Sequence record: MN850588.1
From: Escherichia phage sortregn
DNA length: 38,200 nt
Direction: 5' to 3' (one strand)
Part shown: positions 3,646 through 21,502 of the stretch, piece by piece
Layout: each line of letters opens with the position of its first letter
How positions within the stretch are numbered: position 1 is the stretch's first letter
Translations under genes and position numbers: made by a program
The notes under the pieces: model-generated
What the model saw: only the letters and a program-made list of their open reading frames with translations
The model's database searches: none
Told to the model about the DNA's origin: nothing

Positions 3646-4464
3646 ATGGCGATCTACAAAAAAGAGGACGTTCTCGCGGCGATGCCCGGCAAATGGGAAC
3701 AGGCGCTCCTCGATCTTTGTGGCTGGGACCGCAAGGCGTTTAACGGCAATCATCAACCTTGCCCGATCTGTGGCGGGACGGACCGCTTTCGCTGGGGCCA
3801 TAAGCAACAGACGAAGAAGGCGGAGGGCTTCGGCTACTGTTCCGGCTCCTGTGGCGGCGCTCGTGATGGCATGTTTTGGTTCATGACCAGCCGATCGCAG
3901 CCGTTCAACGAGGCGATCAACGACCTGGGCGACTGGATAGGCGGACTCACCCCGGAGAAGCGGGAAACCATCGTCAAGGAGGCGCGGAAGTATGCCCGCC
4001 AGCAGGATAAGCCCGCGCAGGACTGGGAACTCACCCCGGAGGACGTGGACAAGATCATGAGCAAAGGCACGATGCGCGACGGATTCCTGTATGTTCCATG
4101 CGCTCGTCCACTGGGGGGATCCCTGGGGCCGTGGTGCAACGTGGCGAAGATCGGCTCCGACAGGTCCGTGGTGTTTGCCGCTGGTGGCCCGACGTGGGGC
4201 GCGGTAGGTCTGATCCACCCAGTGCCAGACGCTCCGGTGTATCTGGTGGCGGATCCGGTCCATGCGGTGAACGTGGCGGCGCGAGGGGAGGCGGAGGTCT
4301 GGCTTACGTTCCGGCCTATGAACGCGGTCCAGGCGTCGGCGATATATGACGGCGATCGGGAGATCCGGTTCGTCTACACTGACCCGGACGAGGTTTTCCT
4401 GTACGGCTACGAGAGGACGGGGAGGCCATGCGTCGGCGGGCATCTTGCCGGGGCGTTCGGGTAA
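3646..4464 (+). CDS. DNA primase-like protein (Zn-ribbon + Toprim-like)
   Basis: 272 aa. HQPCPICGGTDRFRW matches the primase-helicase zinc-binding motif (P4 alpha type). C-terminal VYLVADPVHAVNVAARGE is Toprim-like. GGAGGG RBS. Confidence 0.7.
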   Translation: MAIYKKEDVLAAMPGKWEQALLDLCGWDRKAFNGNHQPCPICGGTDRFRWGHKQQTKKAEGFGYCSGSCGGARDGMFWFMTSRSQPFNEAINDLGDWIGGLTPEKRETIVKEARKYARQQDKPAQDWELTPEDVDKIMSKGTMRDGFLYVPCARPLGGSLGPWCNVAKIGSDRSVVFAAGGPTWGAVGLIHPVPDAPVYLVADPVHAVNVAARGEAEVWLTFRPMNAVQASAIYDGDREIRFVYTDPDEVFLYGYERTGRPCVGGHLAGAFG

Positions 4465-15619: not shown

Positions 15620-16258
15620 ATGTCAATATTCACTTTCATTAATCGCAAACTGGGCCGTTTCAAGACGTGCCGGACCTGCAAGGATAAGCACCCTTGCGGC
15701 TTCGGGGAATGGCCTTCGATGTTCTTCATGTGCGACAAGTGCCAGAACAAGACGCTGGAGGAGCTATTCGAACCGGGACGCCTTAACCGCCTGACGATGG
15801 TCCACCAGACGGAGGAACAGATGGCAGAGTCCCGCCGCCGTCTGGGGCCGTTGATCGACAGCCTGGTGAGCCAGCAGCGCCAGAGCAAACAAACCGCAGC
15901 CCAGACCCAGGCAGCGAAGGCCGCGCAGTATCGCGACCCGCGATCGGTGGCAATGGCCCGCCAGATGGCGCACGACCCACGCCCGGCGGCTCGTGGTACG
16001 CAGCAGGATCCGATCTCGGACCCGATGCACCTCCTCAACCCGTTAAACCCGCTCTCCCCAGTGTCTCCGCTCAACCCGCTGAACGACTGGGACGACAGCA
16101 GCCACCGCCACCACGTCGCGCCAGCCATGAGCGAGCCGACGGAATGCCACACCACCAGCCACTCCTCCGGCTATGAGTCCAGCAGCAGCGACTACAGCAG
16201 CAGCAGCTACGACAGCGGGAGCGACTCCTCCAGCTACTCGTCCGGGGGCTGTGACTGA
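15620..16258 (+). CDS. Zn-ribbon protein with NPL repeats and Ser/Tyr/Asp-rich tail
   Basis: 212 aa; GAGAGAG RBS. CRTC-x17-CDKC, Q-rich middle, NPLNPLSPVSPLNPLN, and tail SSSSDYSSSSYDSGSDSSSYSSGGCD. Confidence 0.65.
   Translation: MSIFTFINRKLGRFKTCRTCKDKHPCGFGEWPSMFFMCDKCQNKTLEELFEPGRLNRLTMVHQTEEQMAESRRRLGPLIDSLVSQQRQSKQTAAQTQAAKAAQYRDPRSVAMARQMAHDPRPAARGTQQDPISDPMHLLNPLNPLSPVSPLNPLNDWDDSSHRHHVAPAMSEPTECHTTSHSSGYESSSSDYSSSSYDSGSDSSSYSSGGCD
16181..16245 (+). repeat. imperfect AGC-rich trinucleotide tract inside a CDS
   Basis: agcagcagcgactacagcagcagcagctacgacagcgggagcgactcctccagctactcgtcc encodes the Ser/Tyr/Asp tail of the 212-aa protein. Confidence 0.6.
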
Positions 16259-16554
16259 TGGCGATGGACAAGGACCGCAGGGTGGGCCGCACGAAGGCGG
16301 AAGCGCAACTCCTGAAACTCAAGCTGTACAAGGGGCCGGAGTGCAAGGTCCACGGCGGGAACTTCACCCGGTACACGTCAAACGGCGCTTGTGTGCTGTG
16401 CCGTAAGCTGGAGGCCGACACGACGAAGGGCAAGAGCCGGGGCTATATCGCCAAGAAGCGCGACACGCTGGCGTTTAATCACCCGGTTTCACCCTGGCCC
16501 ATAACCGCCGAGAATATGCACCTGTGCCCGGATCTCTCGTTCAAGCGAACTTGA
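16258..16554 (+). CDS. hypothetical Cys/His Zn-binding-like protein
   Basis: 98 aa; TGATG overlap with the upstream stop. ECKVHGGNFTRYTSNGACVLC pattern. Confidence 0.6.
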   Translation: MAMDKDRRVGRTKAEAQLLKLKLYKGPECKVHGGNFTRYTSNGACVLCRKLEADTTKGKSRGYIAKKRDTLAFNHPVSPWPITAENMHLCPDLSFKRT

Positions 16555-16576
16555 TCACGCTTCCGTAACCGCCGAT

Positions 16577-16626
16577 AATCCTCCGCGTAACCCTGTGACA
16601 CTCAGGCGATAAACGGAGGATTTTTT
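16577..16626 (+). promoter_or_regulatory. long-range hairpin pairing an anti-SD with the terS Shine-Dalgarno
   Basis: AATCCTCCG (16577-16585) can pair with CGGAGGATT (16614-16622). The latter holds the GGAGGA SD 9 nt upstream of the terS ATG. The loop is 28 nt and T6 follows. Confidence 0.4.
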
Positions 16627-16630
16627 CATC

Positions 16631-17185
16631 ATGGCAAACGAACAGAACCTTAAGAAGGGGAACCGCTTCTCCAAAGAGAACCAGCCGGAGCGACGCGGCA
16701 GGGCGAAGCAGAACCGGACGTTACTCCTCGAAGCACTCCGCAAGGTTCGGATCAAGGAGGCCACCGGGCGCAAGGTCGAGGACATCGATCCAAACACTGG
16801 CGAGGTGAAGGTGAACAGCGAAACGGGCGAGCCGATCATGGTGGACGAGTTCGTGGAGGTCCCGCTCACGGAGGACATGTTCATCCAGCGAGCGATCCAG
16901 ATGGCCCTCGTAGACGGTTCCATGATGCGCGACATCATGAGCCGATTAATCCCCTACACCAAGCCGACCAGCCCGACCTATTGCTTTGAACTGACCGGAT
17001 CCACCCCGTCCGAGCGTATCACCGAGATCGAGGACCTGGTGGCAGCGGGAGAGCTTCCGTTCGACGCGGCGGAGTCTATGGTGAAGATGATCCGCCACGG
17101 CGCGGAAGTGTTCGAAATGTCCGAAATGGTCAAACGACTGGACGCACTGGAGGCCCGACTGAATGGCGAAGCCAAAGACGAATAA
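16631..17185 (+). CDS. terS: putative terminase small subunit
   Basis: 184 aa upstream of terL, separated from it by the 144-aa HExxH gene. Basic N-terminus KKGNRFSKENQPERRGR typical of small-terminase-like DNA-binding N-termini, and coiled-coil C-terminus. Largely a positional call. Confidence 0.6.
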   Translation: MANEQNLKKGNRFSKENQPERRGRAKQNRTLLLEALRKVRIKEATGRKVEDIDPNTGEVKVNSETGEPIMVDEFVEVPLTEDMFIQRAIQMALVDGSMMRDIMSRLIPYTKPTSPTYCFELTGSTPSERITEIEDLVAAGELPFDAAESMVKMIRHGAEVFEMSEMVKRLDALEARLNGEAKDE

Positions 17186-17597
17186 ACTCCCGCCGGACAC
17201 TTACGGCAGACTGGAGGCGCTGGGCCTGAAATGGTTCACCGCCTCCCCTTACCCTTATTTCATCGTGTGCTTTGACCCGCAGGACGAGGAGATGGTGGCG
17301 AAGCTGGGCGAATGCTTCCCGGACTGGAACCGCGAGAAGCCGATCCAGCAAGGCGTCGCCATTGAGTACCACGCCGCCGACGTTAAGCTGGTGTTCGTAG
17401 GCGTCCGCCGGGGCCAATACTGGCGGACGACCATCGTCCACGAGATCGTCCACGTTAAGAACTACATCGGCGACACGCTGGGGATCGAGTGGGACGTGAA
17501 CAACGACGAGCCGGAGGCTTACTTCGTGGGCTGGCTGTTTAACATGATGGAGCAAACCTTCCAGGATCTGGGCTATGGCAAAAAATCGAAAGGATAA
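17163..17597 (+). CDS. HExxH motif protein (putative zinc metallopeptidase)
   Basis: 144 aa. IVHEIVHV followed 19 residues after the second His by EPEAY. Overlaps terS and terL by 23 nt each, in a third frame. Confidence 0.6.
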   Translation: MAKPKTNKLPPDTYGRLEALGLKWFTASPYPYFIVCFDPQDEEMVAKLGECFPDWNREKPIQQGVAIEYHAADVKLVFVGVRRGQYWRTTIVHEIVHVKNYIGDTLGIEWDVNNDEPEAYFVGWLFNMMEQTFQDLGYGKKSKG

Positions 17598-19197
17598 CCT
17601 CGCACGACTGGCCCGACTGGAGGGCCGGGCGTCTTACGTGGCCCGCGATGGTGGCCTGGTGTATGGCGTTTATGAGCCGGACGGGACCAGCGCCAAGCAC
17701 TGCTACAACATGAAGAAGGTTAACGGCGAATGGGTGTACACCTCCGAGCCGCACGACATCACGATCGCGGAGTGTCTGACCCCGATCCTCCTCCGTCCGA
17801 AGCGCTTTATTATCCTGGTCGGCGGGCGTGGCTCCGGGAAGTCGCTCACCGTCGGCGGGATCATCGACGCAGACGCCCACGACGAGGCGGCGAGCGCGAT
17901 GTGTCTCCGCGAATACCAGGCATCGATCAAGGATTCAGTCCACCCGCTCCTCGTCAACCGGATCGAGGAGTACGGTCTGGACGGCTTCGAGATCCTGGAG
18001 AAGGAGATCCGCCACACCAACGGCGCGATCATCCGTTTTAAGGGGATGGCGAGGGACCCAGCGGGCGTAAAATCCGCGTTCGGCTTCCGTCGCTTCTGGG
18101 GCGAGGAGGCGCAGACCTTTTCCGCCGAGTCTCTCCGCCAGTTAACGCCAACGATGCGCGAAACGGGCGGTATTATGCTGTTCACGGCGAACCCCGGCTC
18201 CAGTGAGGACGCATTCAGTCAGAGATTCCTGATCCCATTCTGGGAGGATCTCCAGCGGGACGGCATCTACGAGGACGATCTCCACCTGATAATCCGCGTC
18301 AACTGGTCGGATAACCCCTGGTTCCCCCCAGAGCTTCGATCGGAGATGGAGTTCGACCGCCAGACGCTTTCAAAGGCGCTATTCGATCACGTATGGGAAG
18401 GCCATTTTAATGACAGTGTGCCGGATGCCATTATCCCGGCGGAATGGTTCGACGCGGCGATCGACGCCCACAAGAAACTCGGATTCAAGCCGACCGGGAT
18501 CAGGATCGGCGCACTCGACCCGGCGGACGTCGGGGCGGATAACAAGGCTTACGGCGAGCGTTACGGCTCCGTGGTCACGCATATGGAGGAATGGTTCGAA
18601 GGTGACGCGAACGACTCCGTAGACAAGGCGATCAACACGGCGAAGGACCACGGGATCGAGGCGTTCGTGTGGGACCGCGCCGGACTGGGCGCTGGCTTGC
18701 GCCGCCAGGTCACGGAGGCTTACGCCGGGACGAAGGTCCTCGTAGACGGTTACAACGCCGGGGACGGCGTGAAGCACCCTGACAACCCTGTGGAGCTTGA
18801 TCACTGGCTGAACAACAAGGCCAGCGGGAACAATATCCAGAAGAACGCCGACGCGTTCGCGAACCGTGGCTCCCAGGACATCTACCTGTTACGGAAGCGC
18901 TTCGAAAGGACTTACGAGGCCGTGGTGAAGGGCGTATATCACAACCCGGACGAACTGATCGCGCTGGACAGCGAGGGGATCGGGGAGCATATGACCAAAC
19001 TCAGGGCGGAAGTGTGCCGTATTCCGCGCATTTACAACACCAACGGGAAATTTGCTAGGATGCCTAAGCCGCAGATGCGGACCAAACTCAAAATGAAGTC
19101 GCCGGGGATGGCTGACGTGCTTTGCATGTTGATGCAGCCGCCGGAGACGGTGAAAGACGAAGATTATTCCGGCTATAATGTGCCGAGCAACCGCTAA
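17575..19197 (+). CDS. terL: terminase large subunit
   Basis: 540 aa. Walker A-like ILVGGRGSGKS, ATPase N-half and nuclease C-half. Position upstream of portal. Confidence 0.9.
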   Translation: MAKNRKDNLARLARLEGRASYVARDGGLVYGVYEPDGTSAKHCYNMKKVNGEWVYTSEPHDITIAECLTPILLRPKRFIILVGGRGSGKSLTVGGIIDADAHDEAASAMCLREYQASIKDSVHPLLVNRIEEYGLDGFEILEKEIRHTNGAIIRFKGMARDPAGVKSAFGFRRFWGEEAQTFSAESLRQLTPTMRETGGIMLFTANPGSSEDAFSQRFLIPFWEDLQRDGIYEDDLHLIIRVNWSDNPWFPPELRSEMEFDRQTLSKALFDHVWEGHFNDSVPDAIIPAEWFDAAIDAHKKLGFKPTGIRIGALDPADVGADNKAYGERYGSVVTHMEEWFEGDANDSVDKAINTAKDHGIEAFVWDRAGLGAGLRRQVTEAYAGTKVLVDGYNAGDGVKHPDNPVELDHWLNNKASGNNIQKNADAFANRGSQDIYLLRKRFERTYEAVVKGVYHNPDELIALDSEGIGEHMTKLRAEVCRIPRIYNTNGKFARMPKPQMRTKLKMKSPGMADVLCMLMQPPETVKDEDYSGYNVPSNR

Positions 19198-19214: not shown

Positions 19215-21449
19215 ATGGCACGAGTTAAAAAATCGGTGCAGAACTGGCAGGAATGCGCCCGGAAGAAATTAAGCGCCGCGATCGGGGCGGAGGACACCAG
19301 CCGCAAGAAGATGATCGAAACGGCGCGATTTGTCCGCATTCCTGGCGCTCAGTGGGAAGGCTCCACGAACTCCGGCTTTGCGATGGATGATGAACGTTTC
19401 CAGAAATACCCGCGATTTGAGCTAAACAAGGTCGGGCGCGAGGTGGATCGCATCATTTCAGACTACCGCCTGAACCGCGTAAACGTCACGTTCCGCCCGA
19501 AGGACACCCAGGCCTCCGAAGAACTGGCGGACAAGCTGAACGGCAAGTTTCGCGCAGACTTCAACGAGTCGAACGGCTCCGAAGCCGTGGACAACACCTA
19601 CGAGGACGGCGTGACGGGCGGAATGGGCGCTTTCCGCATGGACACCGAACTGGAGGACGAGTTCGACCCGGACAACGAACAGCGTCACATTGTTTTTTAC
19701 CCGATCTATGATCCGGCCTCGTGCCTGTTTATCGATCAGGACTCCAAGATGTACGATCGCAGTGATGCTATGTGGATGGCGGAGCTATTCAGCATGACCC
19801 CGGACAAGTACGAGGAGCGCTATCCCGACGCCCTCGCCCCGGAGGACCTGATGGCGATCGATACCGGGAAACAATTCGACTGGGCCACGAAGGACGCGAT
19901 CTATCTGGCGCGTTACTACGAGGTGAAGATCGAGGACACCACCGTGATCTCCTACAAGAACCCGTTAACCGGGGAGGTGGAGGTCTACGACGAGGACGAG
20001 ATCGAGCAGATCGAGGACGAACTGGAGGCCGGAGGCTGGGAACGCCAGAAGGATCGCAAGGTCAAGCGCCGCAAGGTCTATTGCGGACTTATGACTGGTG
20101 GCGAATGGCTGGAGGAGCCGAAGCTGATCCCGTTCGAGTGGATCCCGATCTTCGTGTTCAACGCCCGCCGCTCGTTCATCGACAACATGGAACGCGTAAG
20201 CGGTCACGCGACCCAGGCCCTCGACGCGCAACGTCTGGAAAACCTGATCGTGTCCATGATGGCGGACCAGGCCGCGCAGTCTGGCGGCGATAACATCCCG
20301 ATCATGGACATTGATATGATTCCCGGAGCGCTGGCTGACGCCTGGGGGGAACGTAACACGAAGCGCCCGGCATACTTGCCCGCTAAATCGCTCCGTAACG
20401 CCGCTGGTGAGGTTGTGCAGCAAGCCGGGCCACTGGGTTACACGCCATCGACGCCGCTCTCTCCGGCGCTGGCAGCGGTCCTACAGTACACCGGGAGCAC
20501 TATCCAGCAGATCGTCGGCTCGTCCCAGGTGGAGGCGTTACCGTCGAACCTGGCGACCGAAACCGTGGAGGCCATTTTCGCCCGTATGGACGGACAGGGC
20601 GCTCTCTACATGGACAACCTGGGGAAAACGCTCCGCCACTGTGGGCGCGTGTACCTCAGCGCGGCCCGCAAGGTCTACGGCTCGGAGAATTACGTCCGCG
20701 TGAAGAACGAGGACGGGACCGACGATCTCGTGTTAATGACCGGGAAAGTGATCGATCGTGACACGGACGAGGCGATCGCGATTAACGACCTCAAGCGCGG
20801 GAAATATGAGGTCGAGGCCGACGTGGGCGAGTCCTCCCAGACGAAGCGCGTCGCAACCGTTCGCAGCCTGACGAATCTCCTCCAGTCCATGCAGCCTGGC
20901 GACCCGAACGCCGCCGTAGTGATGGGCCTGATCATCATGAACATGGACGGCGAAGGCTTGCAGGACTTCAAGGAATACAGCCGCCGCCAGCTTCTCCTGA
21001 ATGGCATCGTGAAGCCGCAGACGGACGAGGAGAAAGCGATGGTAGCCGAGGCCCAGCAAGCCGCCCAGCAGCAGCCGGACGCGCAGATGGTAGCCGCTCA
21101 GGGCGTAGCGCAGCAGGGACAGGCCGCAGTGATGGAGCAGGAGAACAAGCGTTTAGAACTGACGCTCAAGGCGCAGAGCACCGCGTCCGACGGTCAACTG
21201 AAAAACGCGCAGACGGTCAAGACGATGGCAGAGGCGGCGGCAATCCCGCAGGATCAGCTATTGAGCGCGATCGCCGTTCTCCAGAAGTACGTCTCCCAGC
21301 AGAACAGCGACGCCCACAAACAGGCGGATCTGTTCCTCAAGGCTCAGGGACAGGGCCACACCCAGCGCGAGGACCAGATGGCCCGCGAGATGGCAGAGCG
21401 CCAGGCATCGCAGAGCGCCGATCGTCAACTGGGATTAGCTGGCCTGTAA
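19215..21449 (+). CDS. portal protein, P22 gp1-like
   Basis: 744 aa, collinear with P22 gp1 as recalled: ARYYEVKIEDTTVISYKNPLTGEVEVY vs [28 protein letters not shown], and KVKRRKVY vs QIKRRRVY. C-terminal Q/A-rich barrel AEAQQAAQQQPDAQMVAAQGVAQQGQAA. Confidence 0.95.
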   Translation: MARVKKSVQNWQECARKKLSAAIGAEDTSRKKMIETARFVRIPGAQWEGSTNSGFAMDDERFQKYPRFELNKVGREVDRIISDYRLNRVNVTFRPKDTQASEELADKLNGKFRADFNESNGSEAVDNTYEDGVTGGMGAFRMDTELEDEFDPDNEQRHIVFYPIYDPASCLFIDQDSKMYDRSDAMWMAELFSMTPDKYEERYPDALAPEDLMAIDTGKQFDWATKDAIYLARYYEVKIEDTTVISYKNPLTGEVEVYDEDEIEQIEDELEAGGWERQKDRKVKRRKVYCGLMTGGEWLEEPKLIPFEWIPIFVFNARRSFIDNMERVSGHATQALDAQRLENLIVSMMADQAAQSGGDNIPIMDIDMIPGALADAWGERNTKRPAYLPAKSLRNAAGEVVQQAGPLGYTPSTPLSPALAAVLQYTGSTIQQIVGSSQVEALPSNLATETVEAIFARMDGQGALYMDNLGKTLRHCGRVYLSAARKVYGSENYVRVKNEDGTDDLVLMTGKVIDRDTDEAIAINDLKRGKYEVEADVGESSQTKRVATVRSLTNLLQSMQPGDPNAAVVMGLIIMNMDGEGLQDFKEYSRRQLLLNGIVKPQTDEEKAMVAEAQQAAQQQPDAQMVAAQGVAQQGQAAVMEQENKRLELTLKAQSTASDGQLKNAQTVKTMAEAAAIPQDQLLSAIAVLQKYVSQQNSDAHKQADLFLKAQGQGHTQREDQMAREMAERQASQSADRQLGLAGL

Positions 21450-21473: not shown

Positions 21474-21502
21474 AAGACAAGCCCGCTTCGGCGGGCTATT
21501 CT
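21474..21502 (+). promoter_or_regulatory. promoter candidate overlapping the portal terminator
   Basis: AAGACA (21474-21479), 17-nt spacer, TATTCT (21497-21502). Same architecture as 25006-25034. Confidence 0.4.

Follow-up and report, generated by a model that had tools for sequence, protein, structure and literature searches.

What is a gene with the signature of a metallopeptidase doing between the two terminase genes of a phage, and does its address tell us anything about its occupation? The question is raised by Escherichia phage sortregn (sequence record MN850588.1), of which a stretch of 38,200 nucleotides (nt), hereafter the window, was analysed. Here an open reading frame (ORF) of 144 amino acids (aa) with an ATG start (17163-17597, forward strand; hereafter the HExxH ORF) lies between a gene in the position of the small terminase subunit (terS-like; 16631-17185, forward strand) and the gene of the large subunit (terL; 17575-19197, forward strand). 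A sequence-only reading of the locus had described this ORF as occupying the third forward frame and overlapping each neighbour by 23 nt, with a product carrying IVHEIVHV followed by EPEAY 19 residues past the second His; coordinates, frames and spacing are all as it described, E116 standing exactly 19 residues after H97. On its function that reading had offered a protease acting on packaging or head components or on a host defence protein, or a regulator resembling SprT or ImmA. The answer that we favour, with about as much belief as doubt, is that the HExxH ORF encodes an accessory, recombining mini-gluzincin, which stands outside the packaging motor and whose target probably lies in the host.

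A catalytic signature in a large phage family

The product of the HExxH ORF matches PHROG 1365 (function unknown) at an expectation value (E) of 1.4e-19. The same family is matched, at E 5e-10 to 7e-26, by the alleles occupying the equivalent slot in phages IME279 and Skarpretter and by distant proteins of Escherichia phage ESCO47, Klebsiella phage 37P2 and a Flavobacterium prophage. Little else is on record: the protein itself drew no match from Pfam, NCBIfam, PADLOC or the sequences of the PDB, the relatives listed by a word-index search are all nameless and free of Pfam domains, and a literature search for PHROG 1365 found the catalogue entry and no annotation, structure or paper. A profile built from the first 12 homologues (cut-off E<=1e-3) and run against representatives of 50% identity clusters matches 2,687 of them, most of 105-135 aa. 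What is already catalogued under this number appears, from sequence comparison, to be a very widespread family of uncharacterised stand-alone mini-gluzincins.

The case for that assignment is carried by conservation. In an alignment of 132 diverse members that share only 19-35% identity with the sortregn protein, H93, E94, H97 and E116 are each present in 132 of 132, and a second set of positions is near-invariant (D115 in 131, Y120 in 130, N114 in 127, N100 in 125, A119 in 124 and Y30 in 119). The distance from H97 to E116 is 19 residues in 128 of the 132. The family signature, HExxH-xx-N-x13-N-D-E-x-x-A-Y, is thus kept far above chance in homologues of such low identity, and the earlier expectations that the motif would be conserved and that its spacing is gluzincin-like were both borne out. 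Gluzincins are defined by two motifs on successive helices, HExxH on the first and (E,H)xx(A,F,T,S,G) on the second (PMC7213743). Both elements are found here: the codons of H93-E94-I-V-H97-V-K-N100 (17439-17462, forward strand, with HExxH itself at 17439-17453 and the conserved Asn closing the run) fall within a predicted helix of residues 87-106, and those of N114-D115-E116-P-E-A119-Y120 (17502-17522, forward strand), the ExxA(Y) or 'glutamate-helix' motif, lie at the start of a predicted helix of residues 116-135. Strict conservation of the full gluzincin signature, catalytic Glu included, points to an enzyme that is active as a metal-dependent hydrolase and that most likely cleaves peptide bonds. 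In such an enzyme Zn2+ would be held by the two His of the HExxH helix (H93 and H97) together with E116, the first residue of the following helix; the part of general base would fall to E94, and the lining of the site would include Y120 and N100.

The family seems to travel alone and with phages. Longer members (158-209 aa) bring no informative extra domain and no fusion partner, and the plasmid collection returned no homologues, for which reason we regard the family as phage-restricted. The one copy in a Flavobacterium genome lies within a prophage-like packaging module.

Predicted fold and relation to known metallopeptidases

An AlphaFold2 (AF2) model of the HExxH protein, made with a 12-sequence alignment, predicts with good confidence an alpha/beta protein (predicted local distance difference test (pLDDT) 89, predicted template modelling score (pTM) 0.83) composed, in order, of a helix (residues 13-19), two strands (23-26 and 32-37), a helix (42-51), two further strands (64-70 and 75-81), the helix bearing HExxH (87-106) and a helix with E116 as its first residue (116-135). 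The zincin core has been described as a helix, a small sheet, the HExxH helix and the Glu helix (PMC5512222), and from the matching order of elements in the model we infer a zincin fold. A Foldseek comparison of the model with BFVD, which collects structure predictions for viral proteins, brought up many phage proteins that share its fold, nearly all of them nameless; the three neighbours that have names are a SprT-like protein, a 'Metalloprotease' and a PolyVal metallopeptidase, the last at E 0.02. Sequence profiles of the whole family and of its motif half gave only chance-level matches to the PDB. Two candidates were set aside, namely the M1 factor F3 (1z1w), at chance level with E 1.6, and adamalysin (E 0.7), which was aligned onto the wrong helix.

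The linear spacing HExxH-x18-E is that of M1 peptidases. Gluzincins at large, whether of the M1 aminopeptidase type or of the thermolysin-like clan MA(E), resemble the family in having HExxH, 18 residues, E-x-x-A and then a conserved Tyr, and in placing both motifs, after a beta-sheet, on two helices that follow one another (in the family, predicted ones). They differ in size, at several hundred residues against 105-145 aa, and the window family is without GAMEN or any other exopeptidase motif and has no significant sequence or structure match among them, 1z1w being the sole M1 match. The minigluzincins proabylysin and projannalysin are among the minimal zincins of about 100-110 residues. It is to this size class that the family belongs, and in the mini-zincins of the Acel_2062 type some 100-110 residues suffice for a complete zincin catalytic scaffold (PMC3890501).

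Two other groups of peptidases bear on a different reading of the protein, in which a DNA-associated protease of the SprT/Spartan/Wss1 or ArdC C-terminal type would strip phage DNA, ahead of its replication or packaging, of attached or cross-linked proteins (restriction complexes or covalent adducts, for example). We consider this rather unlikely. The zincin-like metallopeptidase (MPTase) domains of polyvalent proteins of phages and plasmids, including the C-terminal domain of ArdC, share with the family their carriage by phages and mobile elements in a setting of host-parasite conflict, the core of helix, small sheet, HExxH helix and Glu helix, and a polar residue three positions past HExxH, which is Asp in theirs and N100 here (PMC5512222; PMC7213743). 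ArdC furthermore offers a precedent, its gluzincin domain being required to overcome hsdRMS (PMC7213743), and the PolyVal neighbour in BFVD adds a weak link. In contrast to those domains, which are part of large multidomain virion or transfer proteins, the window family is stand-alone at ~105-210 aa, never seen fused and without plasmid copies; the Pfam families listed for the query, the consensus and the 132 members do not include MPTase-PolyVal. The SprT-like/Wss1/Spartan group (PF10263) also consists of small alpha/beta zincins, lends its name to a viral structural neighbour and supplies the commonest weak Pfam match among the 132 members (11 of them, best E 3e-4, followed by DUF5700 with five and Tox-MPTase4 with two). 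Neither the query nor the family consensus matches PF10263, however, and hhalign against E. coli SprT gives a probability of 4.7% with HExxH alone aligned, results with which the SprT-like part of the earlier suggestion has to be given up. The third zinc ligand of Spartan is a His (PMC7213743), whereas the family has an invariant Glu 19 residues past the second His and no conserved downstream His, and the window protein is without the zinc-binding subdomain of SprT. Genes of replication, recombination and nucleotide metabolism are frequent neighbours of family members, as a DNA-associated role would have it; against such a role, a protein of 105-145 aa contains no DNA-binding or zinc-ribbon domain, and neither informative fusions nor plasmid homologues were found.

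An anti-repressor protease of the ImmA/IrrE type, cleaving a phage or host transcriptional repressor, is very improbable. It has in its favour the HExxH motif and the small size, to be set against the lack of a Peptidase_M78 match, whether for the query, for the consensus or among the leading families of the 132 members, a predicted alpha/beta fold with four strands, and neighbours that are terS-like and terL with no adjacent helix-turn-helix repressor; in Salmonella phage Lumpael (Murrayvirus), to which the window is ~98.5% identical, the only XRE-type gene lies more than 20 kb away. The regulator resembling ImmA proposed from sequence found no support in these comparisons. An anti-Tmn protein with a Skarprettervirus homologue was likewise considered and rejected, the architecture described for it being different, and by that description it appears to be a different protein.

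Genomic context within and beyond the packaging module

If the address of the gene were its occupation, the HExxH protein would be a packaging or morphogenesis protease acting on terS, terL, portal, scaffold or ejection proteins, a reading that would explain its position in the operon. The slot is indeed well kept. Genes of PHROG 1365 overlap both a terS-like gene and terL in Murrayvirus (ST231, IME_EC2 and KMB41), in Sortsnevirus (Sortsne, sortkaff and IME279), in Skarprettervirus, in Hungariovirus (C130_2) and in a Stutzerimonas phage, so that the insert is carried by five related lineages, and in three unrelated metagenomic or prophage loci a family gene adjoins terL or portal. Homologues of the terS-like gene in more distant phages of Vibrio, Burkholderia (where it is annotated terS), Klebsiella and Streptomyces sit directly upstream of terL with no gene between, which speaks for regarding the HExxH gene as an intercalated insert, as the sequence-only reading had it. 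Overlaps with both neighbours persist across the relatives but vary in length (terS-like/HExxH and HExxH/terL: 23/23, 20/23, 17/17, 26/11 and 38/11 nt); that with the terS-like gene is 23 nt in ST231 and KMB41 as well and 17-38 nt in other genera.

Most family members, by contrast, are found far from packaging genes, which speaks against a packaging protease. In Escherichia phage ESCO47 (Mosigvirus, T-even type) the PHROG 1365 gene (3998-4408, locus coordinates) is one of the small early genes that separate nrdG/glutaredoxin from gp55; the family gene comes after DNA polymerase I in Klebsiella phage 37P2 and after a DnaQ-like gene in FpV9; and in metagenomic phages it is found between ThyX and MazG, after the DNA polymerase III beta subunit, after Cpn60 or amid small genes of no known kind. 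A census of neighbours (ORFs of 115 aa or more, up to four genes away) at 33 loci of IMG/VR, a set of public viral contigs, found terL families at five of the 33, close to a rough chance estimate for genomes of ~60 genes, alongside GIY-YIG (four), Cpn60 (three), NinG (two) and also RecA, Sak, YqaJ, ThyX, DnaB and a methylase. Judged by these gene neighbourhoods, the link to packaging appears local to the slot lineages, the family as a whole not being packaging-linked. The structural genes point the same way: Lumpael has a P22-like module with scaffold, coat, ejection proteins and tailspike, in which no head (maturation) protease is annotated, and a P22-like head with scaffold has no annotated protease step for the enzyme to perform.

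The ESCO47 protein is 36% identical to that of the window, N-terminal helix included, and is the only one from a T-even-type coliphage among the phage-collection matches listed; its presence there suggests horizontal transfer among coliphages.

Selection, allele exchange and a natural deletion

The HExxH ORF is under purifying selection, with a ratio of nonsynonymous to synonymous divergence (dN/dS) of ~0.15 against ST231 and IME_EC2, where terS and terL give 0.09-0.11. Its synonymous divergence nevertheless runs out of step with that of its flanks, being lower against ST231 (dS 0.14 vs 0.32-0.38) and higher against KMB41 (0.74 vs 0.34-0.39). The plainest instance is offered by IME279 and sortkaff, a single species in the NCBI taxonomy, whose terS proteins are 99% and terL proteins 100% identical while their PHROG 1365 proteins share 28%. 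Along the DNA, identity falls from 97-100% to ~40% just past the terS stop and returns to 97-100% at the terL ATG, the divergent alleles occupying 2485-2925 in IME279 and 492-917 in sortkaff (locus coordinates). Since the break in identity coincides with the body of the ORF, that body behaves as a cassette exchanged through recombination in the terminase genes, and the comparison indicates a history unlike that of its flanks. The catalytic motif is kept in every slot allele.

The Lumpael sequence goes further and lacks most of the gene. In an alignment of the window, Lumpael and ST231 DNA, 266 nt are missing from Lumpael within the segment corresponding to 17172-17439 (forward strand; a CC microhomology leaves the exact junction ambiguous), with the result that codons ~4-92 are gone and the frame is shifted. 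The terS-like ORF of Lumpael consequently continues into what is left of the HExxH ORF, its stop lying 28 nt short of terL. In the Lumpael record (NC_048113.1, 25-675, gp01) this fusion is annotated as a 'putative recombinase (DNA_BRE_C superfamily)', a label that we take to be an artefact of the out-of-frame join. A genuine deletion would mean that the phage can propagate on its isolation host without the gene.

These observations speak against the packaging protease, which we now hold to be quite unlikely and which was the first of the roles suggested from sequence. Alleles with 28% identity serve terS and terL proteins that are 99-100% identical, which argues against a specific partner among them, and a propagated isolate has its copy disrupted. 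Together, the variable context, the restriction to phages, the exchange of cassettes and the natural knock-out argue against a role in packaging or head maturation and fit a host-directed accessory function.

Proposed role of the HExxH protein

In the reading that we favour, the HExxH ORF would yield a gluzincin-type hydrolase, small, cytoplasmic and dependent on metal, produced from the late terS-X-terL-portal transcript and operating outside the packaging motor. Its gene would be a conserved yet dispensable accessory of a large phage-restricted family, with alleles swapped by recombination in the flanking terminase genes, and its substrate would most likely be a protein of the host, attacked for takeover or counter-defence, and not one of the structural proteins of the phage.

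Several results weigh against this reading. No Pfam family reaches threshold with the family consensus, and Foldseek against the PDB returned no significant match to a solved structure (best E 0.16); the metallopeptidase fold expected from the motif thus went unconfirmed against solved structures, and agreement with it is limited to the topology and a handful of viral models that bear names. In the model E116 opens its helix and H97 lies nine residues before the end of the preceding one, a geometry of the site that is not self-evident. No conserved neighbour in the 33-locus census and no fusion partner among the longer members indicates a substrate. The retention of the slot in five related lineages may signal that the protein's function is, after all, linked to the terminase operon, and the Lumpael deletion could be an assembly error.

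Some of the same results would suit a protein that is no peptidase at all, in which the cluster of His, Glu, Asn, Asp and Tyr binds a metal for another reaction, such as hydrolysis of nucleotides or small molecules, or stabilises a small binding protein or inhibitor. No solved peptidase matches the family, genes of nucleotide metabolism are neighbours at some loci (ThyX, dNMP kinase, MazG, NrdG and glutaredoxin), and the invariant N114-D115 and D111 fall outside the classical gluzincin set. This alternative is nonetheless unlikely, for the full HExxH and ExxA(Y) motifs at fixed spacing on two consecutive predicted helices are the arrangement of a peptidase, and the invariant E94 serves catalysis, not metal binding.

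Avs-type STAND NTPases, host defences that work by pattern recognition, sense terL and portal. A narrower version of the host-directed reading would therefore make the position of the gene its timing: a counter-defence protease translated with terL and just before portal might disarm or destroy a host sensor as its trigger appears. We regard this as decidedly unlikely in so specific a form. Were it true, the allele swaps would reflect an arms race with variable host sensors, and the family would constitute a new and very widespread class of enzymatic anti-defence proteins, with ~2,700 sequence clusters.

Genes of known function are the minority in phages. Whichever target is correct, a very large phage-restricted family with a catalytic signature and with no Pfam entry, structure or literature is a tractable case, in which function could be assigned to ~2,700 clusters at once. 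The natural knock-out in Lumpael and the allele pair of IME279 and sortkaff are ready material for the question of a host-directed or anti-defence protease. The locus also illustrates how an accessory cassette open to exchange can be housed in an operon that is essential and whose genes overlap in translation.

Layout of the locus and neighbouring genes

The terS-like gene, the HExxH ORF and terL occupy three different forward frames, with overlaps of 23 nt at 17163-17185 (stop region of the terS-like gene and start of the HExxH ORF) and at 17575-17597 (stop region of the HExxH ORF and start of terL), both on the forward strand. The HExxH ORF has a Shine-Dalgarno sequence of its own, read directly as GGAGG at 17149-17153 (forward strand), within the terS-like gene and 9 nt before the ATG; terL has a weak AGGA alone, 8 nt upstream of its start. 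Ribosomes translating the HExxH ORF would also run into this weakly signalled start, and from the overlap and the weak ribosome-binding site it is plausible that its translation helps to deliver ribosomes to terL. The symmetric overlaps and tight coupling to both terminase subunits claimed from sequence therefore stand in part: overlaps with both neighbours are retained in relatives, but their lengths differ, and the HExxH ORF has a GGAGG of its own where terL has a weak signal.

The flanking genes had been called terS and terL. The latter name is secure, the 540-aa product matching Pfam Terminase_3 (E 1.5e-31) and PHROG 2 (1.4e-38), as is the P22-type portal that follows (19215-21449, forward strand, 744 aa; Pfam P22_portal, E 5e-158), the last gene of the apparent terS-HExxH-terL-portal unit. 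The terS label finds no support in profiles. The 184-aa terS-like protein matches phrog_9747, 'unknown function', at 2e-54, and has no match in Pfam, NCBIfam or the PDB, even when searched as a profile against Pfam and the PDB; its AF2 model is of low confidence (pLDDT 69) and helical, with a long C-terminal helix (144-177). The name is supported by conserved synteny, that is, by the position of its homologues directly before terL. In Vibrio phage 1.198.A, which is without the insert, the terS-like gene and terL also overlap by 23 nt (416-438, locus coordinates). The terS-like ORF of KMB41 (vB-Eco-KMB41; 1769-2323, locus coordinates), 88% identical in protein to that of the window, is annotated 'DNA gyrase subunit A'; the ORF is without gyrase features and the label is probably a misannotation.

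A consensus scan found a weak promoter-like site at 16551-16579 and, from the terS-like gene through the end of portal, a sole terminator-like hairpin at 21480-21497. The latter, directly past the portal stop, is a perfect GC-rich hairpin of 7 bp (AGCCCGC-TTCG-GCGGGCT) and is terminator-like on both strands. The scan fits, if weakly, a single terS-X-terL-portal transcription unit.

Two origins for the insert were considered and rejected. Foreign origin is contradicted by composition, the HExxH ORF having a GC content of 57.7% and a third-position GC content (GC3) of 81%, in line with the flanking genes, which argues that it is not a recent acquisition. Duplication of the terS/terL junction was prompted by the equal 23-nt overlaps and by similar N-termini (MAKPKTNKL vs MAKNRKDNL) and was ruled out, since the alignment score of the first 70 nt was reached by 344 of 2000 shuffles and the overlaps are unequal in other genera.

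A 141-aa ORF on the reverse strand (17130-17555) spans nearly the whole HExxH gene; since GC3 on the sense strand is ~80%, we take it to be, most likely, a spurious mirror ORF. Two further ORFs, 15620-16258 and 16258-16554, precede the terS-like gene, one with a Cys-rich N-terminus and a low-complexity tail of Ser, Tyr and Asp and the other with Cys pairs of the CxxC type; neither matches an NCBIfam family. Finally, ACTGGAGG occurs eight times in the window, against ~0.9 expected, at 17146, 17210, 17616, 19649, 20021, 20879 (reverse strand), 22395 and 32018, seven of the eight copies lying between 17.1 and 22.4 kb. The copies at the end of terS, the start of the HExxH ORF and the start of terL each encode (A/R)-Leu-Glu in the frame of their own gene; the repeats probably reflect codon use or the encoded peptide, and not a site in the DNA of the pac kind.

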